A stretch of DNA of 43,228 nt from an uncultured candidatus Brocadiaceae bacterium (GCA_964565715.1 CAZMGG010000003.1:64368-107595), one strand, 5' to 3'. Shown: positions 1-32,282, counted from the stretch's first letter. A program made the numbers and translations. Notes: a model not told the origin generated them from the sequence alone.

Positions 1-53
<53 letters not shown>

Positions 54-1852: not shown

Positions 1853-1898
1853 AAGTGCCGCAAAGCACGGCCGTGTTGGGGATCGCGTTCTCCACCAC

Positions 1899-4159: not shown

Positions 4160-5121
4160 GAGCCCTTGCGTTGGAACACCGCGCGCCACTCCGCAACGTC
4201 GTAGCCGCGATCGGTGCCGCCGGCCAGGGCCTCCAGGGCCTTCCGCGCCGCCAGCCGGACGTTGGCGTTGGTCTCGGCCGGCTCCAGCAGGGCGATCAGG
4301 GCCTCGTGCTGCTCCTGGGCGTTCATCCGGCCCAGCGCGATCGCCGCCATCCAGCGCACCCGCGGCGTGGGGTGCGTGGTGTAGCGCGCCGCCAGCGCGC
4401 CGTCGGTCGGCTCGCGGCCCAGGCCCAGGCCGCGCACCGCGCTGGCGACGATGCCGGGATCGACGTCGTGGAACGGCCGCCCCAGCAGGCTGCGCCAGAT
4501 GGCCAGGATCTCCGCCGCCACCGGGCTGCCCAGGCTGTTGGCCTCCTGGATGCGATAGAGGGCCCAGGCGGCCTGGATGCGCGACTCCGGGCGGAACGCC
4601 GCGTTCTCCATCACCGCCTGCAGCACGCCGGGCGGCGTGAGCGGGTTCTTCAGGATGGCGAGGCCGAGCACCGCGGCGTTGACCAGCTTCTCGTCGCCGG
4701 ACTGGGCGCCGGGCAGGATCGCATGCATGGCATCGGCCTTGCCGGAGTAGCCCAGCGCGCCGAGCGCGATGCGCTGGTGGGCCGGTTCGGCGGCGTCGGC
4801 GGCGGCGGTCACCAGGGCGTCGTAGTGTTCGATCGCCAGGTCCCGCAGGGTCTTCTCGATGGTCGCCGCCTGGCGGTCGGCCCGCAGCACCCCCTGGTTG
4901 GCCACCGCGCGCACGTGGCTGTCGATGAGCTGGTCCATCTGCACCAGGGCCGCGGGCAGGGCGCGGCGCTTCTGGTCGGCGGCCTGCTGCTCGGCGGCGC
5001 GTTGCTCGAGAGTGGGGTCGGCCTCCCGGCGCACCGTCGGCGAGCCGGAACAGGCGCCCAGGGTGGCGAGGGCGAGGGGGAGCAGGGCGGTGATCCGGGG
5101 GGACGGGTTCCTGTTGGGCAT
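4156..5121 (-). CDS. HEAT-repeat lipoprotein
   Basis: N-terminus MPNRNPSPRITALLPLALATLGACSG carries a lipobox. The body is made of HEAT-like repeats, for example VRLAARKALEAL and PRVRWMAAIALGRM. Confidence 0.7.
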   Translation of the reverse strand: MPNRNPSPRITALLPLALATLGACSGSPTVRREADPTLEQRAAEQQAADQKRRALPAALVQMDQLIDSHVRAVANQGVLRADRQAATIEKTLRDLAIEHYDALVTAAADAAEPAHQRIALGALGYSGKADAMHAILPGAQSGDEKLVNAAVLGLAILKNPLTPPGVLQAVMENAAFRPESRIQAAWALYRIQEANSLGSPVAAEILAIWRSLLGRPFHDVDPGIVASAVRGLGLGREPTDGALAARYTTHPTPRVRWMAAIALGRMNAQEQHEALIALLEPAETNANVRLAARKALEALAGGTDRGYDVAEWRAVFQRKGS

Positions 5122-5239
5122 CGCGGGGGCCTCCGACGGCGGCGGCGGCGGGATCTTCCGGCGCCGAGGGAGGGCACATTAGGCCCCGGGGTCGCGCCGG
5201 TCTGCCGCGGGAGCCACAATCTCCCTTCGGAGGTGCATC

Positions 5240-7669
5240 GTGCGGAAGCTCGTCCCCCTGGCCTGCTTGTTGGTGGCGTTCCTGGCCTGGGCCTTCTGGC
5301 CCGGCGGTGGGCCGACCTTGCCGTCGCCGGAGCCCGCGGCGCCGGGGCCGGCCGCGGCGAGCGCCGCAGGCACTGCGGAGGCCGCGCCGGGCACCGTCGA
5401 TGGCGAACGCACGGCGCTCGCGCCGGCCACGGCCGAACGGCCGGTTGATCCCGGCGTCGCCGTTCCCGCGCGCGGCCAGTTGCTCGTGCACGTGCAGTGG
5501 AGTGACCAGACGCCGGCGGCGGACGTGCGGCTGGCGGCGTTCCGCGGCGAGGGCCAGCCGTACGGTGTGGCCGCCGTCGCGGTGAGCGATGCCGACGGCA
5601 CGGCGCGCCTGCCGGTGCCGCCGGGGACCTACCGGCTGCGTTCGGATCGTGGTGGCGACGTGAAGGTCACCGTGGAAGCGGGGCAGACCCAGGAAATGAC
5701 CTTCCCGATCCCCGCGGGCCTCGCGGTGACGGGCACCGTGCGTGACGAGGCCGGCGCGCCGGTGGCCGCGGCCTGGATCTGGCTCACCTCGCATCAGGGC
5801 GGGCCCGCCGGTGGTCGGATCGTCGGCCAGTGCGATGACCGGGGAGCCTTCGCGCTGCGCGACGTGCCGAAGGACCAGTCGCTCGGCGCGCTGGCCACGG
5901 GCTTCGCGCCGTCGGAACTGGTCGACCTGGAGGAATGCGATGTCACCCGACAGCCGGTGACGGTGGACCTCCGTCTCACCCGGCCCGGCGGTGGGCTCCA
6001 GGGCCTGGTCCTCGATCCACAGGGCCAGCCGGTCGCCGGCGCCACCATCGCCGTCGGCCGCAGCGACCGCTACGTGGACTATCGCAGCAACCACACCACG
6101 CGGGAGTTCTGGCAGCCGCGCACGGCGGAGACCGGCGCCGACGGGCGCTTCGCACTGGCGGGTCTCGAGCCCGGCAAGCATCCGGTGGAGGCGCTGGCCG
6201 AGGACTTCCCGATCTGGCGCGGCGAGGTGGAGATCACCGCGAATGCCACGGGCGAACTGGTCGTGCGGCTCCGCGCCGGGGTTGCGGTTTCGGGCACCGT
6301 GCGGGGCAGCGGTGGCGTGCCGCTGGCGGCAGCCGTCGTGCGCGCCTACCCGCAGAAGCTGCGCGAGGACTTCCTGCAGTTCGGGCAGTTCGACTTCGAC
6401 AGCGTGTTCGGTTGCGCGTTCGCGGTGAGCGACGCCGCCGGTCGCTACCGCGTGGAGCACATCGCGCCGGGGACGATCCACCTCTATGCGGCGCCGAAGA
6501 CCGAGCGCAGCGCGCGGGAGGAGGTGCGGATCTGGGACGCCACCGAATTGCAGGGCGAGGATGGCGGAGAGCTTGCCTGGGATCCGTTGATCGATGCTGG
6601 CGCCGTGCTGGAGGGTGTCGTGACGTATCGCAACGGCGCGCCGATGTCCGACGTGTTCGTCACCGCGGCGGCGGAGGATGGCGACGACGCCACCGGGTCG
6701 GGGCGGCACGTCATCACCACCGACAAGCAGGGGCGCTTCCGGCACGTGCGGCTGCAGCAGGTGCGCTACGACGTGTCGGTGCAGTACTGGTCGCCGCCCA
6801 AGGGCACGCCGCCGCTGGTGCGGCGCGGCGTGTTCCCGGGGCAGGGGGAGCTGCGGCTGGTGGCGCCGTTCGACAAGGCGGAGAAGACGCAAACGGCCAA
6901 GGTGCGCGGCCGGGTGCGCGACGCGGCGGGCCGGCTGGAACGGCCGGCGGCGTTGGCCGTGACGCTGAACACGTCGTGGGGGCAGTACCACGGCAAGCTC
7001 GACGGCGACGCGTTCCTGTTCGACCGGGTCGAGCCGGGTCGGTGCCACGTGGTGGTGCGGTCCAACGAGGCACCGATCCACATCGGCTCGTGGTTCGAGG
7101 TGGAGGCCGGCGCCGACATCGACGTCGGCACGCTGGTCACCGAGCCGGGCGGCGGCCTGCACGTGCGGGTGGTGCGCGGGGCGGGCACCGAGGGGCGCAA
7201 GTTCAGCCTGTCGGTGAACCACGAGGGCGGCGGCTACCGGTCGGAGTCGGTGGACGGCGCCGCGTCGGAACTGCGCATCGACAACCTGTGCGTCGGCACG
7301 CAGTTCCTGTCGGTCCATGGCGAGGGCATCGCCGCCGTGCGGAAGCAGGCCTGCACCGTGACGGCCGGCGTGATGACGCCGGTGACGGTGAGCCTGGTGG
7401 CGGCGGAGAGCCGGCCGATCGAGGTGCTTTTCCGGGCCGACCAGGAGATCCGTTCGCTGCGGATCCGCGACGCGGCCGGCGAGGAGGTGTGGTCGTTCGA
7501 GCCGGGCAGCTACGCCCTGCCGCGGCCCTATCGCGGCAAGGTCCGGTTGCCGGCGGGCACCTTCGTGCTGCGCGCCGAGACCTGGGCGGACGCGAGCCAG
7601 GAGGTGGCGTTCGCGATGGGACCGCCGGGCGGCGAGCCGCAGCCGGCGGTGCGCCTGGACCTGCGGTAG
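5240..7669 (+). CDS. Large secreted or membrane-anchored protein made of carboxypeptidase-regulatory-like (CarboxypepD_reg) beta-sandwich repeats
   Basis: GTG start with GGAGG 7 nt upstream. N-terminal hydrophobic anchor LVPLACLLVAFLAWAF. Recurrent G-x-V-x-D-x-x-G-x-P-(V/L)-x-G-A motifs, as in GTVRDEAGAPVAAAWI, GLVLDPQGQPVAGATIAV and GTVRGSGGVPLAAAVVRA. Confidence 0.7.
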   Translation: MRKLVPLACLLVAFLAWAFWPGGGPTLPSPEPAAPGPAAASAAGTAEAAPGTVDGERTALAPATAERPVDPGVAVPARGQLLVHVQWSDQTPAADVRLAAFRGEGQPYGVAAVAVSDADGTARLPVPPGTYRLRSDRGGDVKVTVEAGQTQEMTFPIPAGLAVTGTVRDEAGAPVAAAWIWLTSHQGGPAGGRIVGQCDDRGAFALRDVPKDQSLGALATGFAPSELVDLEECDVTRQPVTVDLRLTRPGGGLQGLVLDPQGQPVAGATIAVGRSDRYVDYRSNHTTREFWQPRTAETGADGRFALAGLEPGKHPVEALAEDFPIWRGEVEITANATGELVVRLRAGVAVSGTVRGSGGVPLAAAVVRAYPQKLREDFLQFGQFDFDSVFGCAFAVSDAAGRYRVEHIAPGTIHLYAAPKTERSAREEVRIWDATELQGEDGGELAWDPLIDAGAVLEGVVTYRNGAPMSDVFVTAAAEDGDDATGSGRHVITTDKQGRFRHVRLQQVRYDVSVQYWSPPKGTPPLVRRGVFPGQGELRLVAPFDKAEKTQTAKVRGRVRDAAGRLERPAALAVTLNTSWGQYHGKLDGDAFLFDRVEPGRCHVVVRSNEAPIHIGSWFEVEAGADIDVGTLVTEPGGGLHVRVVRGAGTEGRKFSLSVNHEGGGYRSESVDGAASELRIDNLCVGTQFLSVHGEGIAAVRKQACTVTAGVMTPVTVSLVAAESRPIEVLFRADQEIRSLRIRDAAGEEVWSFEPGSYALPRPYRGKVRLPAGTFVLRAETWADASQEVAFAMGPPGGEPQPAVRLDLR

Positions 7670-15232: not shown

Positions 15233-16459
15233 TCAGCCTTCGATCAGCGCAATGAGCTGATCCACCGCCGCGTCGACGAAGGCCGGATCCTCGGCGTGGG
15301 TGGCCATCTCCCGCACCGTCACCGTCGCCGGCAGGCTCGCCTTCAGCGCCGCGAAGAACGCCTGATCGCCCGCCGGATCGCGCAGCGGGCCGCCTTCCCT
15401 CCCATAGCGGCTGGTCCCGGCGGTCGGCAGGAACAGCACCGCCCTGCCCTTGGTGTGCTGCAACCGCCGGCCGATCTCGCGGCCGACCTCCTCGAACTGC
15501 GCCCGGTCCAGGCGCGGCGCCAGCACCACCGGGCTGTGGAACACGTGCAGATGGTTCCGCCACGCCGGCGGCACCTGGTGCTCGGGCACCAGCAGGCCCA
15601 CGTGCTCGGTGCCGCCCGGCACGATCACCTGCGGCAGCCCGAGCCGGCCCGCCACCGTCAGCCGTTCCGGCGTCCCGGCCCGCAGGGCCTCGTGCAGTTC
15701 GTCGCTGATCTCGCCCAGCGCATAGTCGAACACCGCGCCGATGATGCCCTCCTTCATCATCTGCTCCATCGCCCGGCCGCCGGTCCCCACCGCGTGGAAC
15801 ACGATCGCCTCATAGCCGCGCTCGGCGAAGCGCCGCACCGCGTGCAGGGCGCCCTCGGTCAGCACACCGAGATTGGTCATGCCGATCAGCGGCCTCTCCC
15901 GCTGCTCGGCCCGGATCGGCCCGCCCACCTGCGCCATGCCCCAGATCGCCCCGGCGGCGTTGGCCAGCAGCCGCCGCAGGAACAGGTTGAGGCCGAGGAT
16001 GTCGCCGATCGACGGCATCATCGTGATGTCCTTGATGTCGACGTAGGGCGCGGTGTTGCCCGACGCCACCGTCGACACCATCAGCTTCGGCACGCCATAG
16101 GGCAGCGTCCGCATCACCTCGCAGCACACCGCCGTGCCCTGCAGGCCGCCCAGCCCGAGCACGCCGTGCACCTCGTCCCGATCGATGGCCCGCCGCAGCA
16201 GCCCACCGGCGCCGGCCACCATCACCGGCTGCGCCTTCTCCCGCGTCGGATCCTGCTGCAGCTTCGCCAGTCCGCTGCCGCCGGCCTCGGCGATTGCCTG
16301 CCGCGTCACGTCGCCGGCCGCCGCCGGCCGGCCGAGCACGCCGATGTCGTACAGCTGGGCCCGCCCGCCCAGCGCCGCGATCTGGTCGCGCACGAACGAC
16401 GCCTCGTCGGCCTTGGTGTCGAGGGTGGCCAGGATGGCGATCGTCTTCGGGCTCGGCAT
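15233..16459 (-). CDS. UPF0261 (Tm-1-like) family protein
   Basis: About 408 aa, MPSPKTIAILATLDTKADEASFV... It is conserved as a gene pair with the downstream PEP-hydrolase-like TIM-barrel gene. Confidence 0.65.
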   Translation of the reverse strand: MPSPKTIAILATLDTKADEASFVRDQIAALGGRAQLYDIGVLGRPAAAGDVTRQAIAEAGGSGLAKLQQDPTREKAQPVMVAGAGGLLRRAIDRDEVHGVLGLGGLQGTAVCCEVMRTLPYGVPKLMVSTVASGNTAPYVDIKDITMMPSIGDILGLNLFLRRLLANAAGAIWGMAQVGGPIRAEQRERPLIGMTNLGVLTEGALHAVRRFAERGYEAIVFHAVGTGGRAMEQMMKEGIIGAVFDYALGEISDELHEALRAGTPERLTVAGRLGLPQVIVPGGTEHVGLLVPEHQVPPAWRNHLHVFHSPVVLAPRLDRAQFEEVGREIGRRLQHTKGRAVLFLPTAGTSRYGREGGPLRDPAGDQAFFAALKASLPATVTVREMATHAEDPAFVDAAVDQLIALIEG

Positions 16460-16468
16460 GGGCGTTCC

Positions 16469-17341
16469 TCAGGAGCGGTGGAAGCGCAGCGCGGCAAAGC
16501 GCTGCGCGGTCTCGAACACGGCCTTCTCGATCGGGATCCGCTCGGTCGACGAGCCGGTCCAGAAGCCGTCGCACGACGTGTGATCCAGCATGTACTGCGC
16601 GTCCTCCGGCGTCTCCATCGCCGCGCCGTGCGCCACCAGGATCACCTCGGGCATGATCCTCCGCAGCCGCTGGTTGGCCTGCTCGGTCCGCGCCGCCGTC
16701 TCCTCGATGGTCTCGCCGGAGTCGTAGCCCTTCAGCCCGCCCTTGGTCGTCCCGGCATGGAAGCAGAACACGTCGGGCCGCGCCTCGGCCACCAGCCGCT
16801 CCGAGTCCTCCTCGTCGAACGCCAGCCCGATGGTGACCATGTCCATCTCCTTGGCCGCCTTCAGCAGCTCGATCTCGTTCTGGAAGGTGATGCCCGACTT
16901 CGTCAGCACCCGGTAGATCTCGCTGTCCTTGTCGACGTAGCTGATCGACGGCCCGATGTTGGAGATCGACATCACCCCCATCGCCTTGCACCGCTCGATC
17001 ACCGTGATCATGTCCTTCAGCGGATCGTTGGCGTTGACGCACGCGCACACGAACGAATCGCCCTTCAGCGCCGGCATGATGTCCTGCTCGGTGTAGTCCA
17101 GCGTCTGCTTGTTGGAGTCGAGGATCGGCCACAGCATCGACATGGTGCCCATGCCGTTGGCCCGCAGCCGCGCGCCGCTGAACGTGTTGATGCAGTCGAC
17201 GCCGGCCTTCTCCAGCATCTGCGCCACGAGGCCGCTGCCGGCGCTGGCGATGAACACCGGCAGGCGCTGCCGGACCTTCTGCCGGAGCTTGTCGAGGATG
17301 CGGGAACGGGTGGTGCGGGGGACGATCACGCGCCGGAACAT
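16469..17341 (-). CDS. Phosphoenolpyruvate hydrolase-like TIM-barrel protein, the usual partner of UPF0261
   Basis: 290 aa, LPVFIASAGSGLVAQMLEKAGVDCI... It lies 10 nt upstream of the UPF0261 gene on the same strand. Confidence 0.6.
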   Translation of the reverse strand: MFRRVIVPRTTRSRILDKLRQKVRQRLPVFIASAGSGLVAQMLEKAGVDCINTFSGARLRANGMGTMSMLWPILDSNKQTLDYTEQDIMPALKGDSFVCACVNANDPLKDMITVIERCKAMGVMSISNIGPSISYVDKDSEIYRVLTKSGITFQNEIELLKAAKEMDMVTIGLAFDEEDSERLVAEARPDVFCFHAGTTKGGLKGYDSGETIEETAARTEQANQRLRRIMPEVILVAHGAAMETPEDAQYMLDHTSCDGFWTGSSTERIPIEKAVFETAQRFAALRFHRS

Positions 17342-17784: not shown

Positions 17785-18059
17785 GGTGGGTGGGGATGGT
17801 GAAGGCGGGGTGATCGGGTCGGCGCGTGGATGGGGTATGGGGGGGTGGACGCGCTGCGGTGGGGTGACGTAGCGTTGGCGGTCTGGGTCATCCGCGCGAG
17901 GACGCGGGTGCAGACCAGGGTTGCCATGGAAGTGAAAACTGCTGCGATGGCCGACGTTCTCTCCGGGTCTCCGAGTCTCCGGGTCTCGAGGCCAGCTTCC
18001 ATGCCTTTCGGGCAAGCGCGGAAGGATCTGCCGCGCGGCTTCTGGACCAGCTGACGCCG

Positions 18060-18683
18060 TTGGTCCTCGGCTGGATCATCCGGGCGCGCCGGCAGCGTCG
18101 CCCTTGGCTCGGGACAGAGGACCTGACCCAGGAGGCGCTGATCAGGATCCACGAAGGGCTACCGGGGCTGCTTTCGAGCGAAGTGGGCGGCCTGCTGCGG
18201 TGGGCCTGGCGGGTGTCAGCGAACGTCGTCGAGGATGAGTACCGTCGGACCAAGGCGCGGCGGCGGTCGCTCAGCGGACGGGATCCGGCGGACCCAGCGG
18301 ACGTGGTCGGCCGTGAGGATCCGCCAGACCAGGCGGTTGCGCGAGGCGAGGCGATCCAGTGGGTCGGCAGCCTGCTGTCGGCACTCTCGCCGCAGCACGA
18401 GCAGGTCCTGAGGCTTCGTGCCGAGGGTCGCGACTTCGACGAGGTGGCATCCGTGATGGCGCTGCCGTCGTCGAATGCGGCCGAGTGCCTGCATCGGCGA
18501 GCGATGGTGGCGTTGGATGAGGGACAGGCCCGCCGCAGGGCGAGGGGCTGTGGCGCAGCATCTTATTGCGTCCATGGGGTCGTCCGCGGCGCTGGCCGCG
18601 CCTTCCATCTTCTTCCGTGCAATCCAAAGAGGTTCCCATGCAGATCCCGGGCAGGCGGTTCTCCAACAACGACAAGATCCTGA
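18060..18683 (+). CDS. ECF-type sigma-70 factor; the start is uncertain and a canonical initiation codon for region 2.1 is missing
   Basis: Region 2.2 LTQEALIRIHEGL and region 4 LSPQHEQVLRLRAEGRDFDEVASVMALPSSNAAECLHRRAMVAL. The in-frame upstream sequence ...SAARLLDQLTPLVLGW resembles region 2.1, but no ATG or GTG follows the preceding stop; only CTG and TTG are available. Confidence 0.5.
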   Translation: MVLGWIIRARRQRRPWLGTEDLTQEALIRIHEGLPGLLSSEVGGLLRWAWRVSANVVEDEYRRTKARRRSLSGRDPADPADVVGREDPPDQAVARGEAIQWVGSLLSALSPQHEQVLRLRAEGRDFDEVASVMALPSSNAAECLHRRAMVALDEGQARRRARGCGAASYCVHGVVRGAGRAFHLLPCNPKRFPCRSRAGGSPTTTRS

Positions 18684-19009
18684 CGGATTGGGCCCCGCGC
18701 GGAGGGGACAACATGATCATCCGGGCGGACCGGGTGGCCTCCACGGCGTCGGGCAGCTGCCGGGTCACGATCCGGGTGATCACCAAGAACGCCGACGAGA
18801 GCGGCGAGGGTGTTCCGATCCACAGCAGCACCAACCCGGTGAGCTTCCAGGTGCTGAACTCGAACGACTCCCGATGTAGCATCCTTGCAAGCGGTGAGAC
18901 GCATGCTGGCACAGTGAAGGCATACTGGGCAGTCGCCATTGCCCCATCAGGAATGAAGACATTCCAGATTCGATGCAGGTGCCCTTGGATCCCCGCGGAG
19001 CCGATGTGA
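18638..19009 (+). CDS. Hypothetical small protein of 123 aa; first gene of the lower-GC cassette
   Basis: AAGAGG lies 7 nt upstream of the ATG. The stop overlaps the next gene's GTG as ATGTGA. No recognisable motifs. Confidence 0.5.
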   Translation: MQIPGRRFSNNDKILTDWAPRGGDNMIIRADRVASTASGSCRVTIRVITKNADESGEGVPIHSSTNPVSFQVLNSNDSRCSILASGETHAGTVKAYWAVAIAPSGMKTFQIRCRCPWIPAEPM

Positions 19010-19446
19010 TCACCAATCGAACATCCAGGATCGGACTTCTCGTCCTGGTGGCCTTGTTGCCGGTGATCGCATTCATCTGGTGCGGACGCCAGAGATCGGA
19101 CACTTGTGGGACGGTAAGCCCATGTCAGGAGTATGGACAAGCCCTGTTCGGCGCGAGCGCAGCCGTTGGAAGCATCATTCCGTTTATTGGAGCCAACCAT
19201 CAGGCTGTGCCTTCCGAATGGCTGGCCTGTGATGGTCGGGAGGTCGAGTCGCAGGATCATCCGGAACTAGCTACGCTGCTCGGTTCTGGGCAGGCCGGGG
19301 CATTCAGACTGCCGGATTTTCGTGGGATCTCGGCCATGAGGTTGAAGGGATATGACGGTCCAGCGAGCATGGCGTTGACGCAGCGCATCCCCGAGGAGAG
19401 CCCCGTAGTTGCTGTTCCTGTTGTTTGGTTCGTCAAGGCACGCTGA
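19006..19446 (+). CDS. Membrane-anchored phage tail-collar domain protein
   Basis: N-terminal TM helix IGLLVLVALLPVIAFIW. The stretch SIIPFIGANHQAVPSEWLACDGREVESQDHPELATLLGSGQAGAFRLPDFRG matches the tail-collar consensus (I..F.G...P.GWL.CDG........LF.LLG.......F.LPDLRG). Confidence 0.65.
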   Translation: MITNRTSRIGLLVLVALLPVIAFIWCGRQRSDTCGTVSPCQEYGQALFGASAAVGSIIPFIGANHQAVPSEWLACDGREVESQDHPELATLLGSGQAGAFRLPDFRGISAMRLKGYDGPASMALTQRIPEESPVVAVPVVWFVKAR

Positions 19447-19568
19447 TGGTGCGGGCGCACGTTGCTACACGAAGCGCGTGGATTCCCTGGATTTCCCGGG
19501 CATCATGGCAAGGCCTTTGTGCGTCCCCACGGACCAGCACTTGCTCGCTTGCAGGGTCACGGAGCGCC

Positions 19569-19775
19569 ATGGGCTGTTCTGCCGGACATGACAGCGGGTC
19601 CGTAGCTGGGGACTGGACCATTCCCGACGAAGGCATGGGCCAGATCTGGGACCGCAGGATGGCGCCGGACAAGGGCCACGGCAGTGAGGGCGGCTCCGGC
19701 GGAAAGGCCGGCTGTGGTTGCTCTGCCGGCGGCTCCTGCGGATGCAGGGGCGGATGCAGCGGCGGGACCCCCTGA
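19569..19775 (+). CDS. Gly/Ser/Cys-rich small peptide, 68 aa from Met 19569; alternative starts at 19635 or 19659 give 46 or 38 aa. Putative RiPP/bacteriocin-like precursor or metal-binding peptide
   Basis: C-terminal core GGSGGKAGCGCSAGGSCGCRGGCSGGTP. GGAG lies 4 nt upstream of the 19569 ATG. The stop overlaps the next gene's ATG as TGATG. This is the only long open frame in the 210-nt gap. Confidence 0.45.
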   Translation: MGCSAGHDSGSVAGDWTIPDEGMGQIWDRRMAPDKGHGSEGGSGGKAGCGCSAGGSCGCRGGCSGGTP

Positions 19776-20506
19776 TGTCGGTGAAGTCCGGGAGCAATAC
19801 GAGAGAAGCGCCAGCGGGGCGTGTGGGGACCGCTCGATCTGCCTGGCTGGGTTGGAGGCGGCGTCGTGAATCTATTGCAGTATGGCTGGCCGTCGGAGCA
19901 ATGGCAGCGTACATCCTTCTGCTTGCCGTCAGTGTCACGACGGCGTTGATGCTGGCGGTGCTTATGGGGGTCGTTGCCTATTGTGGACTACGGTGCCCTC
20001 GCGGAAGCAGGGTATCGGCCAAGGCGAAGAGTCTGGTGGTGGGGGCCTGTCTGGGATTCACGGTGACATGGGGTGGCGTCCTTGCGGGGAGCACGTGCTA
20101 TCGCGAACTGTCGCCCGAGGCTCAGTTGGAGTGGGATCAGGCCTATCTTGAACACCATGATCCTCATGAGGTCTGGCGCACTGCTGTCGTGGCAGGTTGG
20201 CCGGTGTGCGGAGTGGAAGGTCACGACGACTTCTACTGGATACGACGATCCTGGCGGGAGCAAGGGATGGGAGAGCGGCCCATAATTGTCAGTCAAGCGA
20301 CGCAGCCCTGGCGCGTGCCGCCATCTAAAGGCGTATGGGTGCTGTGGATCAACTTCGCGATCCTGACATGGTGTGGATGGGGGCTGGCCATCCTCATGCC
20401 GGGCAGATGGGTGACTCTGGCGCTGCCGTGGTGTGCCGCGGCTGCTGCCGTTGCGGTGGTATGGTCCGTGTATTGGCTGTGGAGGAATGCACTCGGTAAT
20501 GTCTAG
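19775..20506 (+). CDS. Four-TM membrane protein A, a putative immunity/transport protein of the cassette
   Basis: MSVKSG... start is coupled to the peptide stop. Two N-terminal and two C-terminal TM helices flank a Trp-rich central domain, VVAGWPVCGVEGHDDFYW. Confidence 0.55.
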   Translation: MSVKSGSNTREAPAGRVGTARSAWLGWRRRRESIAVWLAVGAMAAYILLLAVSVTTALMLAVLMGVVAYCGLRCPRGSRVSAKAKSLVVGACLGFTVTWGGVLAGSTCYRELSPEAQLEWDQAYLEHHDPHEVWRTAVVAGWPVCGVEGHDDFYWIRRSWREQGMGERPIIVSQATQPWRVPPSKGVWVLWINFAILTWCGWGLAILMPGRWVTLALPWCAAAAAVAVVWSVYWLWRNALGNV

Positions 20507-20733
20507 GCGGCAGCCGGCGTCGCCGATTGGCTGCGTGGCTGTGCAGGCCGGTCGGACCCGTAGCCGAGTGGCGGCGGGGCGTCCGACACGACCGTGCCAC
20601 CCGCCACGGACCGGAGCAGTGGCTGTTCCGGGTCTACGGTCTACGCGGGTGGCGAACTCAGGCCGGCATGAAGGTCGCCCAACCGCAACCCGGGCGACCG
20701 GAAGGCAGAGTTGCCAGCATGTGAGGTTGCACA

Positions 20734-21423
20734 ATGGATGATGTCGGGGTGCATCGGAGAGGAGTCCTGGAGCACACGGTGACGGAGCCAGGCGTGTCGA
20801 TCCGGATCCGTGCCGTGATGTGGGTATTTCTCTTCGGTTTCGCTGCTGCACTGGCGGTCATGCTGAACGCGGGGTTTCTGCTCATCATCCGCGTCGTCTC
20901 GTTGCTCCTGGTGTGGGCATGTCTGCCGTTCCTGTTGCGGCGGTGTGGGATATGGGCACTCCGAGCGTCCCTCGCGGTGGTGGTCGCATGGGGCGGGACC
21001 GGCTGCCTCCTGCACCTGACGACGGTGGCGTACAAGGACCTCAATTGGTCGCAACGGGAGGCCTGGGAGCAGACGTGGGTGGGGGCGAGTAATCGGCCGA
21101 CGTGGGTGGTGGCAGGATGGTCGATATGGGGTGTGGAGGGTCGAGACCCGGTAACCGATGCGTGGTACAGAGGCTCGATTGTCGTCGAGGGAGGATCGCG
21201 TTACCGGGACCCGTGTTGGGGGCTCTACGGCGACAAGGGCGTCGTTGCGTACGTCGCCAACTGGACCATCCTGTGGCTGATGGTCATGGTCGCGCTGGCA
21301 GTCGTTGGGCGATGGCGGGCGCCCGGGCGCGTGTCACTGGTCCGTCCCTGGTGCATCGCGTCGGCCTTGTGGGCCTTGGGCACTCATCTCGAGTTCGAGT
21401 GGTTCCGCGAGTACGGCTGGTGA
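20734..21423 (+). CDS. Four-TM membrane protein B, a paralogue of A; an alternative start is Met at 20818
   Basis: Same architecture as A, with conserved central motifs: WVVAGWSIWGVEGRDPVTDAWY against VVAGWPVCGVEGHDDFYW, and LNWSQREAWEQTW against LSPEAQLEWDQAYL. Confidence 0.55.
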   Translation: MDDVGVHRRGVLEHTVTEPGVSIRIRAVMWVFLFGFAAALAVMLNAGFLLIIRVVSLLLVWACLPFLLRRCGIWALRASLAVVVAWGGTGCLLHLTTVAYKDLNWSQREAWEQTWVGASNRPTWVVAGWSIWGVEGRDPVTDAWYRGSIVVEGGSRYRDPCWGLYGDKGVVAYVANWTILWLMVMVALAVVGRWRAPGRVSLVRPWCIASALWALGTHLEFEWFREYGW

Positions 21424-21603
21424 AGGCACCCCGTTCCCGCGATCGACCCCTGCGCCATGTACACCCCAGACCGCCCCACAGCCCCGCGCCCACCCACACC
21501 CACCCACCCATCCGCCCGGCCGGAAGTGGCGCCGCCGGCCGGTTCCCGCTCGAATGCCGGCAACCCGGCGTATCCTCGCCCTCGCCCGTATTCCCGCCCG
21601 CCC

Positions 21604-22125
21604 ATGTCGCTTGCCCCCGAGATCGCCCTCGAACGCCACCGTGAGCGCCTGCTGTCGGTGATCTACCTGCGGATGGGGCCGGACCTGCGCACCCGGATGG
21701 ATCCCGAGGATGTCCTGCAGGACGTCGCCATCGAGGCCCTCAACTCCTGGCACACCCTGTCGGACCCCGAACTGGCCGGGCCGTGGCTGGTGACCCTGGC
21801 CCGACGCAAGATCGCGCGCATCCTGCGCGATCAGGTGGGGGTGGCGGCGCGGGATCCGCGGCGGGAGCACCCGATCCAGACGGACTTCCCGGTGGCGGAC
21901 CGGCGGACCGGGCCGGTGACCACCGCCGATCGGGGCGATCGCCTGCAGCTGCTGGAGGCGGCGTTGCAGCGGCTGTCCGACGATCACCGCGAGGTCGTGC
22001 TGGGGATGAAGATCGAGGGCCAGTCGGCGAAGGAGGTGGCCGACCGGATGGGGCGCAGCGAGAACGCCATCCACCTGCTGCTCGGGCGTGCGTTGAAGCG
22101 GCTGGCGGAAGAGCTGAAGCTCTGA
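21604..22125 (+). CDS. ECF sigma-70 factor
   Basis: Region 2 DPEDVLQDVAIEALNSW and region 4 LSDDHREVVLGMKIEGQSAKEVADRMGRSENAIHLLLGRALKRL. The kinase gene starts 3 nt after its stop. Confidence 0.7.
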   Translation: MSLAPEIALERHRERLLSVIYLRMGPDLRTRMDPEDVLQDVAIEALNSWHTLSDPELAGPWLVTLARRKIARILRDQVGVAARDPRREHPIQTDFPVADRRTGPVTTADRGDRLQLLEAALQRLSDDHREVVLGMKIEGQSAKEVADRMGRSENAIHLLLGRALKRLAEELKL

Positions 22126-22127
22126 GC

Positions 22128-24698
22128 ATGACCGAGGCCCGCCCCGAGGCGCCCGAGCCGGGACCGCCGGACAGCAGCGCCGACCGCCGCATGGCGGACC
22201 TGCTGGCGGACACCAGCAGTGCCGCGGAACTGCGGCGGCGGCTGCAGGGCGACGCGACGGCGGCGCCGGATCGCGAGGATCTGCTGGCGCGGGTGAACGC
22301 GCTGGAGTTCGTCGACGCGGTGGTGGGCGGCGTCGACCTGCCCGCAGCGATCGGCGGCTACCGGATCCAGGGCCTGCTGGGCCGCGGCGGCATGGGCACG
22401 GTCTACCTGGCGTTCCAGCAGCAGCTCGAGCGGATCGTCGCGCTGAAGGTGCTGTCGCCGAACTGGTCGGCGGATCCGACCATGCGCGAGCGGTTCCGGG
22501 CGGAGGCGCGCGCGACGGCGGCGCTGCACCACCGGCACATCGTGCCGATCTACGACTTCGGCGAGGCGCAGGGCAGCCTGTACTTCGCCATGGAACGGGT
22601 GGACGGACTGAGCCTCGACCGGCACATCGCCGCGGCGCGGCGGCGTGGACAGCCGCCGATGGCGCCGCTGGAGGCGGCGCGGCGCTTCGCCGGCGTGGCC
22701 GACGCGCTGGGGCTGGCCCACCGGCGGCGGATCCTGCATCGCGACATCAAGCCCGGCAACATCCTGGTGGGCCAGGACGGCACGCTGGCGTTGACCGACT
22801 TCGGGCTGGCCAAGGTGCTGGACCGGGCGTCGCTGCGGCTGACGTCGAAGTCGGGCGGCTTCCTCGGCACGCTGCACTACAGCTCGCCGGAGCAGGCGCT
22901 GGGCCGCGAGGTGGGGCCGGCCAGCGATCTGTACGGGCTCGGCGTGACGCTGTTCGAGGCGATCACCGGCGAACTGCCGCACCGGGGGCGCACGACGGAG
23001 GCGGTGCTGCGCGAGATCCTGGAGGGCGAACCGCGGCGCCTGCGGGAGTTGCTGCCGCGGCCGCCGCGGGACCTGGAACTGGTGCTCGACAAGCTGATGG
23101 CCCGGGAGCCCGGCGACCGCTACCAGGACGGCGAGGCGCTGGCGCGCGACCTGCAGCGCATCGCCGACGGCGAGCCGGTGCACATCCGGCGGCTGCCGGT
23201 GTGGGTGCGGGCCTGGCGACGGGCGCGGAAGAATCCGCTGCTGGCCGGCGCCATGGTCACCGCCGCGGTGCTGCTGCTGGCGACGCTGGGGCTGTGGAGC
23301 GGCCTGCGCCGCGAGAAGGGCCAGGGGCTGGTGTCGCGGCACCAGAACCACCTGGTGCAGATCGCCAACGACGTGAAGCGCGAGGCCGGCGATCCGGCGG
23401 GCCCGGCGGGCCTGCTGGCGTGCCTGACGGGCACCTCGCTGCCCCAGGCGACGGAGAACACGACGCTGCTGGCGGCGATCGCCGCGGCCCAGGCCGAGGT
23501 GCCCGACGACCCGGTGCCGGCGGCGTTGCGGGCGGCGTGGCGGGAGGATCCAGCGCCCGAGGTGAGCGGGCTGCTGCGGGCGGGACGCGGCTTGGCGGCG
23601 CTGCAACGGCTGCGCGCGCCGATCGAAGGCGCGCTGGCGGAGCGGACCGGCGGCGACCTGTCGGTGGAACTGCGGCTCTACCGGCTCTACCTGCTGCGGG
23701 CGGTGGCCAACCTGACCGGCGCCGTGGGCGACCTGCCGGCGGCGCGGATGGACCTGGCCCTGGCGACGTTCCTGCGGCCCGGCGCCACGTTCCCGCGGCT
23801 GCTGGGCGAGGTGCTGGACGTGGTGACGACGCGGGCGGTGGGCACGGCGCTCCTCTCGTTCGAGCAGGAACTGGGCCGACGGAGCGTCGAGGAACGGCGG
23901 GTGGCGGGGCTGCTGCTGCGGGCCGCGGCGGCGCTGCCGCAGCCGCCGGGCGCCAATCTGCTGCCGCTGCCGCTGCCCCACCCCGACCGGCACCTGCTGG
24001 CCGCCGCCGCCGAGGCGTTGCTGGCCGGCAGCGTGCTGCCGGTGACCGCTGGCGCGCCGTCGCTGGAGGCGCAGCTGCTCGGCGCCGCCATCGAAGCCTC
24101 GCGGCACGGCGGCGACCTGCTCGCCCTGCAGGGCGCGCTGCAGCGGGGCCGCGCGCTGCTGGCCGAGGTGGCGCCCGAGGCGCCGCTGCAGTGCTGGCGG
24201 CTGGTGCTGGACCTGATCGAGCAGACGCCGAGCGCCGACACGCCGATGCTGGTTGGCGCCGACGATCCGCCGGCGCTGGTGCTGGCGGCCTGGGAGCGGT
24301 TCGCCCTGCTGGGCACCGCGCGCTTCCGGGTCGCCGCCTGGCTGCCGTCGTTCGTGCGGTTCGAGCAGGAACATGGCGACCTCACCGGGCTGCCGCGGAC
24401 GGCGGCGCTGGTGCGGCGGGCGGCGGGCCAGCTCACCGAGCCGCTGGCCCAGGCGTGGGTGGATGCGGCGCCGCGGGATCCGGACGCGCTGCTCTGCCGG
24501 CTGGAGGCGCGATTGCTGCTGCGGCGTTTCCCCCAGGCGGTCGACGACGGCATGGCGGCGGTGCAGTTCGCCGCCGACCGCGCGACGGCGGCGCGGGCGG
24601 TGGCGGCGTTGTTCGCCGCCGCCACCGAGCGGGCGATGCTCGGCGAGAAGATCTACCTGCAGCGGGTCACGGCGGTGTTCGCGGAGGCCGGCACGTGA
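22128..24698 (+). CDS. Hanks-type Ser/Thr protein kinase with a TM helix and a large C-terminal, probably periplasmic, domain
   Basis: Gly loop GRGGMGTVYLA; VAIK-like IVALKV; catalytic loop HRDIKPGNIL; DFG; SPE. TM helix LLAGAMVTAAVLLLATLGLW, followed by ~470 aa A/L-rich. Confidence 0.8.
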   Translation: MTEARPEAPEPGPPDSSADRRMADLLADTSSAAELRRRLQGDATAAPDREDLLARVNALEFVDAVVGGVDLPAAIGGYRIQGLLGRGGMGTVYLAFQQQLERIVALKVLSPNWSADPTMRERFRAEARATAALHHRHIVPIYDFGEAQGSLYFAMERVDGLSLDRHIAAARRRGQPPMAPLEAARRFAGVADALGLAHRRRILHRDIKPGNILVGQDGTLALTDFGLAKVLDRASLRLTSKSGGFLGTLHYSSPEQALGREVGPASDLYGLGVTLFEAITGELPHRGRTTEAVLREILEGEPRRLRELLPRPPRDLELVLDKLMAREPGDRYQDGEALARDLQRIADGEPVHIRRLPVWVRAWRRARKNPLLAGAMVTAAVLLLATLGLWSGLRREKGQGLVSRHQNHLVQIANDVKREAGDPAGPAGLLACLTGTSLPQATENTTLLAAIAAAQAEVPDDPVPAALRAAWREDPAPEVSGLLRAGRGLAALQRLRAPIEGALAERTGGDLSVELRLYRLYLLRAVANLTGAVGDLPAARMDLALATFLRPGATFPRLLGEVLDVVTTRAVGTALLSFEQELGRRSVEERRVAGLLLRAAAALPQPPGANLLPLPLPHPDRHLLAAAAEALLAGSVLPVTAGAPSLEAQLLGAAIEASRHGGDLLALQGALQRGRALLAEVAPEAPLQCWRLVLDLIEQTPSADTPMLVGADDPPALVLAAWERFALLGTARFRVAAWLPSFVRFEQEHGDLTGLPRTAALVRRAAGQLTEPLAQAWVDAAPRDPDALLCRLEARLLLRRFPQAVDDGMAAVQFAADRATAARAVAALFAAATERAMLGEKIYLQRVTAVFAEAGT

Positions 24699-27490
24699 CG
24701 CCGCCGTGGAGCGGGCGGCGGCGCGCCTGGGCCATGGCCGTCGGCGTGCTGGTGCTGGTGGCCATCGCGTCGGTGACGGCGTGGATCCTGGTCCAGGGCG
24801 GCGGTACCGGGCGGCGCGCGGCACCGGCCTCGGCGGGCGCACCGGCCGGCGCCAGCGTCGCGCCGGTGCCGGCCCTGCCGGCGGGGCCGCTGCCGGCGCC
24901 CAGCGACGACGGCGGCGTAGCGGGCACCGTCCTGCGGCCCGATGGCCTGCCGGCCACCGGCGCCCGCGTGACCCTGCACCGCGCCCAGACGGCGTGGCCC
25001 GAGTGGCGGCGGCAGGCGCTGGAGGTCGCGGTCACCACCGCCGGCGGCCAGTTCCGCTTCCGTACCGCGCGCGGACCCGACCTGCTGCTCGAGTTCGAGC
25101 ACCCGGACTTCGCCGGCGACCTGATCGAGGCCTCGCCCCTGGTGCGTGACGTGCAGCTCCGCCTGCAGCCGGGCTTCGTCGTGTCGGGCTTCGTGGTGGC
25201 CAACCGCCGGCGCCAGTTCGGCTGCCGCGTCACGCTGGAACCGACCATGGGCGAATGGCGGCGCACGGTGGGCGTCGACACCGGCACCGACGGCGCGTTC
25301 CGCTTCGACAACGTGCCCGCCGGCAGCGTGCGCGTGGTGGCGCGGCATCCGGCGTGGCAGCCGGCGGTGCAGCCGCAGGTCACGGTGGGCGCCAGCCGCG
25401 GCCTGGAACTGCGCTTCGAACGGCCGCCGCTGTCGCTCACCGGCCGGGTCCTGGCGGGCGGCAGCCAGCGGCCCCTGGTCGGCGCCCGGGTCACGGCGCT
25501 GCCCAACGTGACCTACCGCGCCCTGTTCGAGCCGCTGGTGACGATGACCGGCGGCGACGGCCGCTTCACGTTCCAGGGCCTCGGGCCCGGCAACCTGCGC
25601 ATCGAGGTGACGCATCCGGAATGGTCGAGCGGCTCGCGTTCGGTCGCGGTCAGCGACTCGTCGGTGGAGCTGCTGTTCGAACTGCTGCCGCGGGCGGCGG
25701 TGCGCGGCCTGCTGCGCCGCGTCGATGGCGTGATCGGCGGCGCCCTCGACGGCGTCCTGCTGTCGCTGCGCTCGGCCAGCGGCGAGATGGGCCGCTGCGC
25801 GGTCGCCGTGGATGGCACCTTCGCCTTCCCCGGCACCTGGTCGCTGGGCAACGCGACGCTGGAGGCCGTCGATGGCGCCGTGGCGTTCGCGCGCACGTCG
25901 GGCGCCGACCTGCCGATCCGCATCGAGGAGGGCGGCGAGGACCTGCAGATCGACGTCACCGCGCCGTCGGTGCTGCGCGGCCGGGTGGTGGACGGCGGCG
26001 GCGCGCCGCTGCCGGGGGCGCAGCTGCTCATCTCCCAGGAACTGCTGCGCCTGCCGGCACCGGACCGGGTGGTGGCGGTGGCCCTGGCCGACGGCTGGTT
26101 CGAGGTGCGCGGCCTGGCGGCGCGCTCGATGTCACTGACCGCGTGCCATCCGGGTCGGGCGGCGCGCCGCGTCGAGGTGCAGGCGCCGGCGCCCGGCGCC
26201 ACCCTGACCGTGCCCGACGTCGTCCTGCTGCCCGGCGGCAGCATCCGCGGCGTGGTCCGTCGCGGCGAAGGGCCGCTGCCGGGGGCGCTGGTGCAGGCCA
26301 CCGGCGGCGTGGCGTCCGGCACGACGGTGGCCGGCGCCGATGGAGCCTTCCTGCTGACCGATCTGGCGCCGGGCAGCTACCGCGTGCGCGCCCGCTACTC
26401 GACCATGCCGCTGGCGTTCGCCGAGGGCGAACTGACGATCACGCCAGGGGCCGTGCTGGGGCCGGTCGAACTCCGCTTCGGCGCCGGCCGCACGGTGCGC
26501 GGCGTGGTGCTCGGGCGTGACCGCCAGCCCGTGGAGGGCGCGGCGGTCACGGCCCGCGGTCTCACCTCATCCGGTGCACCGATCGTCACCGACGCCGCCG
26601 GCGCGTTCGCGATCGAAGTGCCGCAACGCGAGGTCGAACTGCTGATCGCGACCAGCCACGGCGGCAGCCAGGTCCTGCAGCGGGTGCCGGCGGAGGTCAC
26701 CGACGTCGAGGTGACGCTGGACGTGGCGCCGACGGCGACGGTCACCGGCCGCCTGCTCACCACGGTCGGCCGGCGACCCCTGCCGGCGGTGCTGGTGCGC
26801 ATCGAGCCGATCGGTGGCGCCGGGCCCCGCGCCAGCCTGGTCCGCTGGCTGGATCTGGCCGGTGGCGCCCTGCGGCTGCCGTTCGTGCCGGCGCAACCCT
26901 GCCGGCTGATCCTGCAGGGCGAGGGCCTCCTGCCGGCGGTGTTCCCGCTCACCCTGGTGGCCGGGCAGGAACACGATCTCGGCGAGGTGCTGCTGGAACC
27001 CGGCGCCGTGCTGTTCGGCCGCGTCGTCGACGAACAGGGCGCGCCGGTGCCGGGCTGCACCGTCTTCTTCGGCCGCGAGGAGGACCTGCGCGACCACGCG
27101 CCGCCGGGCCGCACCGATCCGCAGGGCCTGTTCCGGCTCGGCGGCGTCAGCTCAGCGCTGCCGACCCTGGTGGCCGTGGCACCGGGCTTCGCGCCGCGCA
27201 CCGTCACCCTGCGCCTGCCGCAGGACGTGCTGGCGCGGGAACCGCTGCCGGTCGTGCTGTCCCGCGGCACCCGCCTCGAGGTGGCGGTGCACGACGGCAC
27301 CGCCGGCCAGATGGTCGTCCTGCAGCGGGACGGCGCGATCCTGCAGGTGGCCGAGTCGGAGGACTCGGGCGTGGCGCACTTCCCCAACCGCGCCGCCGGG
27401 GTCTACGAGGTGTTCCTGCTGGGCCGGCCCGAGACCCTGGTGCAGGTGGCGCTGGACGGCCGCGCGGAGACGCTGCGCCTCGACCTGTGA
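24695..27490 (+). CDS. Large membrane-anchored CarboxypepD_reg-like repeat protein, a paralogue-type of the 5240-7669 gene; an alternative ATG is at 24734
   Basis: GTG overlaps the kinase stop as GTGA. TM helix AMAVGVLVLVAIASVTAWIL. At least 8 repeats of G-x-V-x-x-x-x-G-x-P-x-x-G-A, for example GRVVDGGGAPLPGAQL, GVVRRGEGPLPGALV and GRVVDEQGAPVPGCTV. Confidence 0.7.
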   Translation: MTPPWSGRRRAWAMAVGVLVLVAIASVTAWILVQGGGTGRRAAPASAGAPAGASVAPVPALPAGPLPAPSDDGGVAGTVLRPDGLPATGARVTLHRAQTAWPEWRRQALEVAVTTAGGQFRFRTARGPDLLLEFEHPDFAGDLIEASPLVRDVQLRLQPGFVVSGFVVANRRRQFGCRVTLEPTMGEWRRTVGVDTGTDGAFRFDNVPAGSVRVVARHPAWQPAVQPQVTVGASRGLELRFERPPLSLTGRVLAGGSQRPLVGARVTALPNVTYRALFEPLVTMTGGDGRFTFQGLGPGNLRIEVTHPEWSSGSRSVAVSDSSVELLFELLPRAAVRGLLRRVDGVIGGALDGVLLSLRSASGEMGRCAVAVDGTFAFPGTWSLGNATLEAVDGAVAFARTSGADLPIRIEEGGEDLQIDVTAPSVLRGRVVDGGGAPLPGAQLLISQELLRLPAPDRVVAVALADGWFEVRGLAARSMSLTACHPGRAARRVEVQAPAPGATLTVPDVVLLPGGSIRGVVRRGEGPLPGALVQATGGVASGTTVAGADGAFLLTDLAPGSYRVRARYSTMPLAFAEGELTITPGAVLGPVELRFGAGRTVRGVVLGRDRQPVEGAAVTARGLTSSGAPIVTDAAGAFAIEVPQREVELLIATSHGGSQVLQRVPAEVTDVEVTLDVAPTATVTGRLLTTVGRRPLPAVLVRIEPIGGAGPRASLVRWLDLAGGALRLPFVPAQPCRLILQGEGLLPAVFPLTLVAGQEHDLGEVLLEPGAVLFGRVVDEQGAPVPGCTVFFGREEDLRDHAPPGRTDPQGLFRLGGVSSALPTLVAVAPGFAPRTVTLRLPQDVLAREPLPVVLSRGTRLEVAVHDGTAGQMVVLQRDGAILQVAESEDSGVAHFPNRAAGVYEVFLLGRPETLVQVALDGRAETLRLDL

Positions 27491-30598: not shown

Positions 30599-30618
<20 letters not shown>
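28990..30618 (-). CDS. Multi-pass membrane protein, the putative permease of the ABC exporter
   Basis: MGLLAADLQ start overlaps the ATPase gene's 3' end by ~20 nt. About 10-12 hydrophobic helices. Confidence 0.55.
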
Positions 30619-31395
<777 letters not shown>

Positions 31396-31399
<4 letters not shown>

Positions 31400-32166
31400 C
31401 CGTCGAACTCCGCGGTGACCGGGCAGTGGTCGCTGGCCGGGCGCTTCAGCCGCACGTCCTTGTGCACGGTGACGGCCCTGCAGGCGGCGGTGGCCCGGGC
31501 CGAGGTCAGCACGTAGTCGATGCGCAGGCCCTCGTCCTTGAAGGCGGCGCCCGCCCTGTAGTGCCACCAGGTGTAGAGGCCGGGCTCGGGATGGAAACGC
31601 CGCGTCACGTCGTCGAGGCCCCAGTCCAGCAGCCGCCGCATGGCGGTCCGTTCCGGCTCCGAGCAGAGGATCTTGCCGCGCCAGGCCTCGGGATCGTGCA
31701 CATCCCGATCCTCGATGGCGACGTTGAAGTCGCCGAGCAGCACGACCTTCTCGTCGCGACGATAGTCCTCGTCGAGCATCGAGCGCAGCCGTTCGAACCA
31801 GGCGAGCTTCCGCCGATAGCTGTCGGTGCCCACCGCCTGGCCGTTCGGGCAATAGAGGTTGAGGACCATGAACTCGCCGACGTTGCAGCCGATCACCCGC
31901 CGCTCGCCGTCCGGCGGGTCGCCGGGCAGCCCGCGCAGGACCGCCTCCATGCGGTGCCGGGCCAGGATCGCGACGCCGTTGTAGGACTTCTGCCCGAAGG
32001 TCTCGAGGTTGTAGCCCTCGTCCTCCAGCGGCTCCCGCGGCAGCTGCTCGTCGACGACCTTGGTTTCCTGCAGGCACAGCACGTCGGGACGTTCGTCGCG
32101 CAGGAAGTCGATGACGTGGGCGAGGCGGGCCCGCAGCCCGTTGACGTTCCAGGTGGTGATCTTCAT
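31396..32166 (-). CDS. xthA: Exodeoxyribonuclease III (AP endonuclease of the Xth family)
   Basis: MKITTWNVNGLRAR, LCLQETK, NLYCPNG, LGDFNV and the C-terminal SDHCPV motif are all present. Confidence 0.8.
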
Positions 32167-32282
32167 CGGTGGGGGCGGGAGCGGGACGGCGGCGGCACGG
32201 AGGGGGCATTCTGGCGATCGTGCGTCCCGGCGGAAGGGCCTGCTTCTTGCCACCGCGCCGGTGGCCGGTTCTGCTCTCGCCC

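Follow-up and report, generated by a model that had tools for sequence, protein, structure and literature searches.

We analysed a 43,228-nt stretch of DNA (hereafter the window) from an uncultured candidatus Brocadiaceae bacterium (GCA_964565715.1, CAZMGG010000003.1:64368-107595), in which a compositionally atypical gene cassette lies at 18638-21423, between two genes for extracytoplasmic function (ECF) sigma factors that we call sigA and sigB. Read along the plus strand, the cassette consists of p123, a gene for a protein with a phage tail-collar domain (the collar protein), a short candidate open reading frame (ORF) rich in Gly, Ser, and Cys (the Gly/Cys ORF), TM1, a 227-nt spacer, and TM2, where TM1 and TM2 encode Trp-rich polytopic transmembrane (TM) proteins. 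All cassette ORFs are intact, with zero frameshifts. The cassette is a real, compositionally foreign orphan operon in which one known domain appears in an unusual setting, accompanied by a membrane-protein family that is very rare, and it is not demonstrated as a new peptide-antibiotic system. It was probably acquired horizontally, as a block spanning ~18,870-21,430 directly 3' of the divergent ECF sigma gene sigA.

The guanine-plus-cytosine (GC) content of 18638-21423 is 63.6%, against 72.7% for the rest of the window and 72.1% for the whole of it, and this is the lowest value among all 2786-bp windows of the stretch (mean 72.4%, sd 3.1%). An earlier description made without database searches (the sequence-only reading) had proposed a low-GC island of 58-60%; the island itself stands, but such values are confined to ~18.8-19.4 kb, with TM1 and TM2 at 62-65% and the spacer between them at 71%. 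The same description let the island begin with p123, whereas the break in codon usage lies inside that gene: GC content at third codon positions (GC3) is 0.95 over codons 1-78, which is host-like, vs 0.60 over codons 79-123, with the best change-point at nt ~18872 (Fisher p = 2e-6), and therefore the compositional boundary falls within p123. This pattern suggests that p123, which resembles a fusion, arose when incoming foreign DNA became attached to a native gene beside sigA, of which the 5' two-thirds were kept. GC3 periodicity is weak in the collar gene and TM1 (0.63-0.66), and the neighbouring host genes have GC3 values of 0.88-0.97. At the other border, TM2 (GC3 0.79) directly precedes the upstream region of sigB, and since this junction is kept at 89% nucleotide identity in a second lineage (contig L002), the block predates that split. 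No tRNA, integrase, or flanking repeat marking the block was found, the spacers held no Rfam element and no unusual RNA fold, and a search through the PEP-hydrolase-like gene for a syntenic genome lacking the island returned 80 loci that had only the PEP-hydrolase-like/UPF0261 gene pair in common.

The first four ORFs are tightly coupled. Direct reading of the sequence gives GTGA/ATGTGA at 19004-19009 for the p123/collar junction, and TGATG both at 19444-19448 (collar/Gly-Cys) and at 19773-19777 (Gly-Cys/TM1), so the overlapping stop/start junctions described before are confirmed at these three places, but not between TM1 and TM2, which are uncoupled across their 227-nt spacer. Shine-Dalgarno-like motifs stand ahead of four cassette starts, namely AGAGG 5 nt before the ATG of p123, GGAG 5 nt before the collar GTG at 19006, GGAG 4 nt before the Gly/Cys ATG at 19569, and GAGG 7 nt before the ATG of TM2. 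Between sigA and the cassette, no promoter or terminator consensus rose above chance, and neither the region upstream of sigA nor the spacers yielded an informative match to the ECF-type pattern GAAC-N15-18-CGT. Antisense and alternative ORFs had zero Pfam matches that would mark them as real genes. Of the cassette, the public NCBI annotation of the 107.6-kb source contig includes p123 and TM2 but, for TM1, just the C-terminal 79 aa as a fragment (P0006), and the depositor's annotation thus has no collar gene, no peptide, and no full-length TM1; the island genes were probably under-called since gene finders were trained on high GC3.

The first product, p123 (18638..19009, plus strand), is a 123-aa protein predicted to be all-beta and to have no signal peptide. 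It forms a cluster of one in the protein collection, where it has NCBI and Logan entries, with no match in Pfam, NCBIfam, PHROG, PADLOC, or PDB and no close relatives in phage genomes, plasmids, viral contigs, or metagenome scans. A single-sequence AlphaFold2 (AF2) model was all strands, though unusable (predicted local distance difference test score, pLDDT, 37).

The collar gene (19006..19446, plus strand) encodes 146 aa from GTG 19006, or 157 aa from an alternative ATG at 18973. The GTG, whose GTGA overlaps the p123 stop and which a gene caller used as the start on contig L092, is the more likely of the two. The protein matches the Pfam Collar profile PF07484 well above threshold (E 2.6e-10; 40.5 bits, cut-off 24), residues 66-118 covering profile positions 1-54 of 57 and showing both the W..CDG and the LPD.RG signature, and PHROG tail fibre/collar families match it too (best E 3.5e-8). 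Hydropathy marks a single hydrophobic helix at aa 20-38, N-terminal to the domain. Because one such helix precedes a significant Collar domain, we predict a single-pass, membrane-tethered minimal collar domain, which agrees with the TM-anchored tail-collar protein of the sequence-only reading. Over half its length, the protein is 27-37% identical to cyanophage short tail fibres and to a tail protein from an Azospirillum prophage, and its closest phage and plasmid relatives are the tips of far longer tail fibres. A word-indexed homologue search yielded nothing at E <= 1e-3, a search of PDB sequences yielded only a weak short-tail-fibre match, and no close relatives appeared in metagenome, viral-contig, or phage/plasmid searches; likewise, literature searches on planctomycete tail-collar proteins turned up nothing relevant.

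The collar stop is followed by a stretch (19447..19568) that is either non-coding or a doubtful N-terminal extension of the Gly/Cys ORF. Read in the Gly/Cys frame, its GC content is highest at codon position 2 (0.78 vs 0.62 at position 3), and the first 41 codons of the 109-aa version of the ORF, from the TGATG at 19446 to ATG 19569, are therefore not coding-like; the stretch shows no stable RNA fold (z = +0.68) and no Rfam match. Most plausibly, the candidate gene is the 68-aa version (19569..19775, plus strand; 21 Gly, 6 Cys), which was called as a gene on the identical contig L001 and whose stop overlaps the TM1 ATG. It is the sole six-frame site in the window with at least 4 Cys and at least 8 Gly per 22 aa, and its Cys/Gly stretch contains a 12-nt tandem DNA repeat (2.3 copies). 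No family match was obtained in Pfam, NCBIfam, PHROG, or PADLOC and no homologue was detected, and since all other copies of the stretch found are 100% identical, they hold no substitution pattern. Its composition fits a Gly/Ser/Cys core, with no leader motif, so that the microcin-B17 likeness ascribed to it is one of composition only. We regard it, at best, as a candidate accessory small protein.

TM1 (19775..20506, 243 aa) and TM2 (20734..21423, 229 aa), both on the plus strand, are paralogues (30% identity, E 1e-8, BLASTP) with 19 Trp each. They had been described as paralogous four-TM proteins; the paralogy holds, but hydropathy (in TM1, segments at 34-52/53-72, 87-105, 189-207, and 213-231) and the family alignment suggest five TM segments for both, arranged as a two-helix hairpin (aa 34-72), a third helix, an ~80-aa loop, and two more helices. 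Positive charges are grouped at the N-terminus and in the loop that joins helix 2 to helix 3, which by the positive-inside rule would place the large loop in the periplasm; the helices of the AF2 model of TM1 were also used for the topology. We infer a periplasmic position for the collar domain and, in TM1 and TM2 alike, for the large conserved loop. The invariant motifs of the family (Y-R-D-L-x-P...W, VVAG[WF]P..G.EG.D, and G...LW.N[FW]) lie in or at the edges of this loop.

Variation between strains is available for TM2, which is listed in the protein collection under NCBI and has an 86%-identical counterpart in the L002 lineage (89% identity in nucleotides). The ratio of nonsynonymous to synonymous substitution rates (dN/dS) between the two is 0.53, the helices are near-invariant, and most changes fall in the large, predicted periplasmic loop, a pattern that indicates moderate purifying selection on TM2. 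Unlike the adjoining TM2 gene, the TM1-TM2 spacer (20507..20733; host-like GC of 0.71, no codon periodicity) cannot be aligned with L002, and ORFs within it gave no Pfam match. Conservation of TM2 does not extend to its N-terminal ~15 residues, so its true start may be an in-frame GTG at ~20779. L002 also has, at ~150-215, a ~25-nt tandem duplication (GGGAGTCCTGGATCACACGGTG twice) at the 5' end of the TM2 gene.

The membrane-protein family is extremely rare. An exhaustive search of 1.84 billion representative proteins with a profile hidden Markov model (HMM) of TM1 and TM2 returned 6 matches, i.e., TM1, TM2, and four distant relatives (P0007-P0010, E 8e-17 to 9e-4), while word-indexed searches found only TM2 itself and its 86% variant when started from TM2, and only two members already known when started from the family alignment. 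No further relatives were seen in 185,579 species-representative genomes, JGI metagenomes, IMG/VR, phage genomes, or plasmids, and the family profile had nothing significant among PDB sequences. TM1 aligns full-length with P0007, P0008, and P0009, and the closest distant relative of TM2 is P0010; since the alignment thus separates into two subtypes (subtype 1 with TM1 and P0007-P0009, subtype 2 with TM2 and P0010), the TM1/TM2 duplication is old, and these comparisons indicate that the two are ancient paralogues of a very rare Trp-rich family.

The relatives lie on short contigs (L003-L009, just 1-2.2 kb); 0.8-1.4 kb of sequence upstream is available for L004 and L008 only, and L009 is too short for its TM-gene neighbours to be judged. 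On L003, the C-terminus of another family member ends 110 nt upstream, which makes a tandem pair again, and a convergent HD-associated gene lies downstream. Four Logan contigs (L004-L007) carry a 453-aa Cys-rich orphan protein that stops 1 nt before the TM gene; on L004 (89-1450), this protein has 23 Cys with an N-terminal CDCGGGCGHGCCESC cluster and precedes the distant family gene P0010, and it has no family match, no PDB match, and no toxin-type domain in Pfam, NCBIfam, or PADLOC. On L008, the TM gene has no partner in the 800 nt upstream, just a divergent HEAT-like gene. No collar, p123, or Gly/Cys homologue was detectable on these short contigs, and the idea that homologues of the cassette genes travel together elsewhere found no backing as far as 1-2.2 kb reach. 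The L004 Cys cluster is reminiscent of the Gly/Cys peptide, but homology between the two was considered and rejected, as they are not significantly similar and Cys is abundant along the whole L004 protein.

Both flanking genes belong, as had been read from the sequence, to the ECF sigma factors. The stop-to-stop ORF of sigA (17868-18683) scores 47.7 bits against TIGR02937 (sigma70-ECF; cut-off 42.9), with Pfam r2/r4 matches below the gathering score; the gene (18060..18683, plus strand) is co-directional with the cassette, and its tail overlaps the p123 start by 46 nt. The ECF profile match begins 9 codons upstream of the first in-frame ATG/GTG/TTG (TTG 18060), and sigA either uses a non-canonical start or is 5'-truncated. 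GC3 drops to 0.29-0.65 over its last ~50 codons. A 16-nt near-perfect tandem repeat at 17960-17991 (TCTCCGGGTCTC...) was examined as the cause of a sigA frameshift and rejected, as deleting one copy restores no ORF with a start codon. The downstream gene, sigB (21457..22125, plus strand; GC3 0.88), matches Sigma70_r2/r4_2, TIGR02937 (58.4 bits), and TIGR02984 (Sig-70_plancto1, a Planctomycetaceae-specific subfamily; 97.6 bits). Its first ~49 residues are Pro-rich and of low complexity, and because ATG 21457 reads ACG in L002, the real start is probably downstream, at Met ~21604 (MSLAPEIALERH...). A Ser/Thr protein kinase gene (22128..24698, plus strand; Pkinase, E 2.2e-41) begins 3 nt beyond the stop of sigB. 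ECF sigma factors are known to be paired with Ser/Thr kinases (PMC7826278), and sigB goes with this kinase and not with the cassette.

The organism is an uncultured Planctomycetota bacterium, and a PEP-hydrolase-like protein encoded nearby is 84-90% identical to proteins of Planctomycetota metagenome-assembled genomes (MAGs). At 21457-27490, sigB and the kinase are followed by a 929-aa protein with six CarboxypepD_reg repeats, and 4156-7669 holds another protein with CarboxypepD_reg repeats beside a HEAT-repeat neighbour; this looks like a sigma-kinase signalling arrangement that recurs in planctomycetes. The PEP-hydrolase-like/UPF0261 pair (15233-17341; loci L010-L089) keeps 75-90% protein identity across MAGs that range from 33% to 72% GC and are labelled Planctomycetota, Bacteroidota, Acidobacteriota, Gemmatimonadota, and Calditrichia, with no common surrounding synteny, and is unusually conserved and apparently mobile. 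Within the UPF0261 gene, contig L090 differs from the window by seven C-to-T changes in 31 nt (L090 2162-2192, window 15398-15428), out of 8 differing positions in 7967 nt overall between these two assemblies of one organism; this patch could be a localised deamination-type artefact or hypermutation. Separately, another low-GC stretch (58-61%) occupies the left edge of the window (1-2000) and contains a 504-aa ORF (338-1852; GC3 0.64) with a weak, sub-threshold PMT_2 glycosyltransferase-like match.

How these genes might work together can be proposed only tentatively, and the explanation we favour is that the cassette is an acquired accessory module of the envelope, which read-through from the sigA operon would express; the collar protein would serve as its binding element on the periplasmic side, with the TM paralogues for membrane partners. 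Foreign DNA would have joined the 5' two-thirds of a native gene beside sigA, so that transcription of the sigA operon would run on into the cassette, and its genes would be translated through their stop/start overlaps. The membrane-tethered, probably oligomeric, receptor-binding-type collar domain would then act with the TM paralogues at the periplasmic face, where together they may bind or sense, for example, an envelope or external ligand. We favour this module because of the predicted tether of the collar domain, the conserved exposed loop, the tight coupling, and the position after an ECF sigma gene; also in its favour are the purifying selection on TM2, the preserved TM2-sigB junction in L002, the lack of any above-chance promoter or terminator consensus between sigA and the cassette, and the absence of RiPP, toxin, immunity, defence, phage-structural, or mobility genes among the ORFs scanned in and beside the block. 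The TM family, moreover, is found elsewhere without phage genes or peptide partners and is missing from viral contigs, phage genomes, and plasmids. The cassette would accordingly seem not to be a peptide-antibiotic factory. Several points weigh against the module. An interaction between the collar and TM proteins is unsupported by co-occurrence elsewhere; function-bearing homology is absent for four of the five products, and the envelope role leans on predicted location. Transcription driven by sigA is a prediction, with no ECF-type promoter recognised, and insertion of the block is deduced from composition, with no syntenic relative lacking the block found. Finally, the AF2 model of TM1 is of low confidence (pLDDT 64.8), and fold searches were uninformative.

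The sequence-only reading had pointed to a bacteriocin or polymorphic-toxin locus. Such a cassette, in which a secreted antagonist would be supplied by the Gly/Cys peptide or the collar protein, and immunity or export by the TM paralogues, would fit the translational coupling of a small Cys/Gly-rich ORF to TM1, the tandem TM genes here and on L003, the patchy and rare distribution of the family, the atypical composition of the block, and the grouping of between-strain changes in the exposed loop; the tight coupling of the L004 family member to its upstream 453-aa orphan is also toxin-immunity-like. We nevertheless consider it unlikely. None of the products matched any toxin, immunity, RiPP (a peptide made by ribosomes and modified after translation), or defence model in Pfam, NCBIfam, PHROGs, or PADLOC, and p123, the peptide, TM1, and TM2 have no toxin or trafficking domain in Pfam, NCBIfam, or PADLOC. 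The peptide ORF, still a candidate as coding sequence, has no recognisable leader or signal peptide. No YcaO/E1-like cyclodehydratase, FMN (flavin mononucleotide) dehydrogenase, radical-SAM enzyme, or peptidase occurs among the main candidate genes scanned with Pfam (a selection of the ORFs), just as the earlier description had stated for maturation genes; nor, in the same set, was a dedicated ATP-binding cassette (ABC) exporter or immunity gene found beside the Gly/Cys ORF, and the sole ABC ATPase domain belongs to an unlinked minus-strand ORF (30599-32449) ~9.5 kb off. Moreover, significant similarity between the peptide and the L004 protein is lacking, immunity proteins normally co-vary with toxins, and the L008 TM gene stands alone. 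The literature on Cys-rich RiPPs yielded nothing relevant. A more adventurous variant, in which the 68-aa ORF and the rare five-TM family form an unrecognised peptide/membrane-protein system with no known RiPP enzyme, strikes us as highly improbable; there, the TM family would export, mature, bind, or neutralise the Gly/Cys product, with a Cys-rich partner coupled on L004 also, and the system might be, for example, a novel pairing of bacteriocin and immunity protein, or a metallopeptide rich in thiols together with its membrane partner.

The position of p123, which begins within the tail of the sigA ORF where an anti-sigma gene usually lies, raises another option, i.e., that p123 and/or the collar protein are a new anti-sigma factor and sensor for sigA, with the TM proteins as targets or co-sensors. 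Its first 78 codons look native to the sigA locus, and the following protein is predicted to be single-pass with an extracytoplasmic domain. However, neither p123 nor the collar protein contains zf-HC2, RskA, or another anti-sigma domain (no anti-sigma family match at E up to 1), the collar protein has just ~8-19 cytoplasmic residues at its N-terminus, too few for such a domain, the 3' third of p123 and all that lies beyond are compositionally foreign, and sigA itself looks N-terminally truncated or degenerate. We rate this option as slightly less credible than a toxin-immunity cassette. Phages are known to encode membrane proteins beside receptor-binding genes, and the collar domain is mostly a phage tail-fibre element with its best matches in phage short tail fibres and a prophage tail protein; together with the low-GC, foreign-looking composition, this could speak for a prophage or tailocin remnant, in which a truncated receptor-binding tip was kept with membrane 'moron' genes (e.g., for superinfection exclusion). 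This is less probable again: among the Pfam-scanned ORFs there is no tail, baseplate, assembly-chaperone, or other structural gene, nor one for lysis, an integrase, or a repressor, the block has neither a tRNA nor a repeat as a nearby boundary, the other four products are without a PHROG match, p123 and the TM family are also without matches in 50,697 phage genomes and viral-contig scans, other TM-family members adjoin non-phage genes, and, in contrast to a fibre, the collar protein carries a membrane anchor of its own. Lastly, the block might be transferred DNA without function that is decaying, with the Gly/Cys ORF, the 3' part of p123, and perhaps TM1 no longer expressed. The gaps in the depositor's annotation, the weak GC3 periodicity of the collar gene and TM1, the missing canonical start for the full N-terminus of sigA, and a TM2 dN/dS only moderately under 1 would agree with decay, yet the ORFs have all stayed free of frameshifts, the collar protein keeps its significant domain match, TM1 aligns full-length with distant relatives, four starts have Shine-Dalgarno-like motifs, and the TM2 helices are near-invariant across 11% divergence while the adjoining spacer cannot be aligned; we therefore give decay very little credence, as little as the unrecognised peptide system.

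If the cassette is functional, an envelope module of this kind would mean that a phage receptor-binding module has been re-used as a membrane-tethered bacterial protein, and it would add an extremely rare Trp-rich membrane-protein family with a conserved periplasmic motif. More generally, the cassette is one among many orphan islets in Planctomycetota genomes, and gene callers trained on a 72%-GC genome overlook genes in such compositionally foreign islets.

Set against known systems, the cassette resembles each in part. Like microcin B17 and other linear azol(in)e-containing peptide (LAP) loci, it has a short ORF whose C-terminal 30 residues are nearly all Gly, Ser, Cys, and Ala, but that candidate ORF has no sequence similarity to them, and no YcaO/E1-like cyclodehydratase, dehydrogenase, exporter, or McbG-type immunity gene is present among the scanned ORFs. 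With bacteriocin and polymorphic-toxin loci, it shares a small or Cys-rich ORF coupled by stop/start overlap to a polytopic membrane protein, tandem paralogues, a patchy distribution, and an atypical composition; it departs from them in having no recognisable toxin, trafficking, or immunity domain, and the upstream partners of the TM-family members are mutually unrelated, with one member alone. As in ECF sigma operons, the cassette begins at the anti-sigma gene position, overlapping the end of the sigma ORF, and the sigB-kinase pair is of a described type, whereas the cassette lacks a detected anti-sigma domain and is mostly foreign in composition vs the sigma gene. As for phage tail-collar proteins (PF07484), the collar protein matches the profile end to end and a short C-terminal strand follows; in contrast to them, it extends only ~95 aa beyond its anchor, has an N-terminal TM helix in place of the fibre shaft, shows at most 37% identity to any phage or plasmid protein over half its length, and is without neighbouring tail genes. 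The small stand-alone bacterial proteins of the 'microcystin-dependent protein' type (COG4675) are collar-domain proteins as well. Class membership holds only for the Collar domain and, in the case of sigA, for the ECF family.

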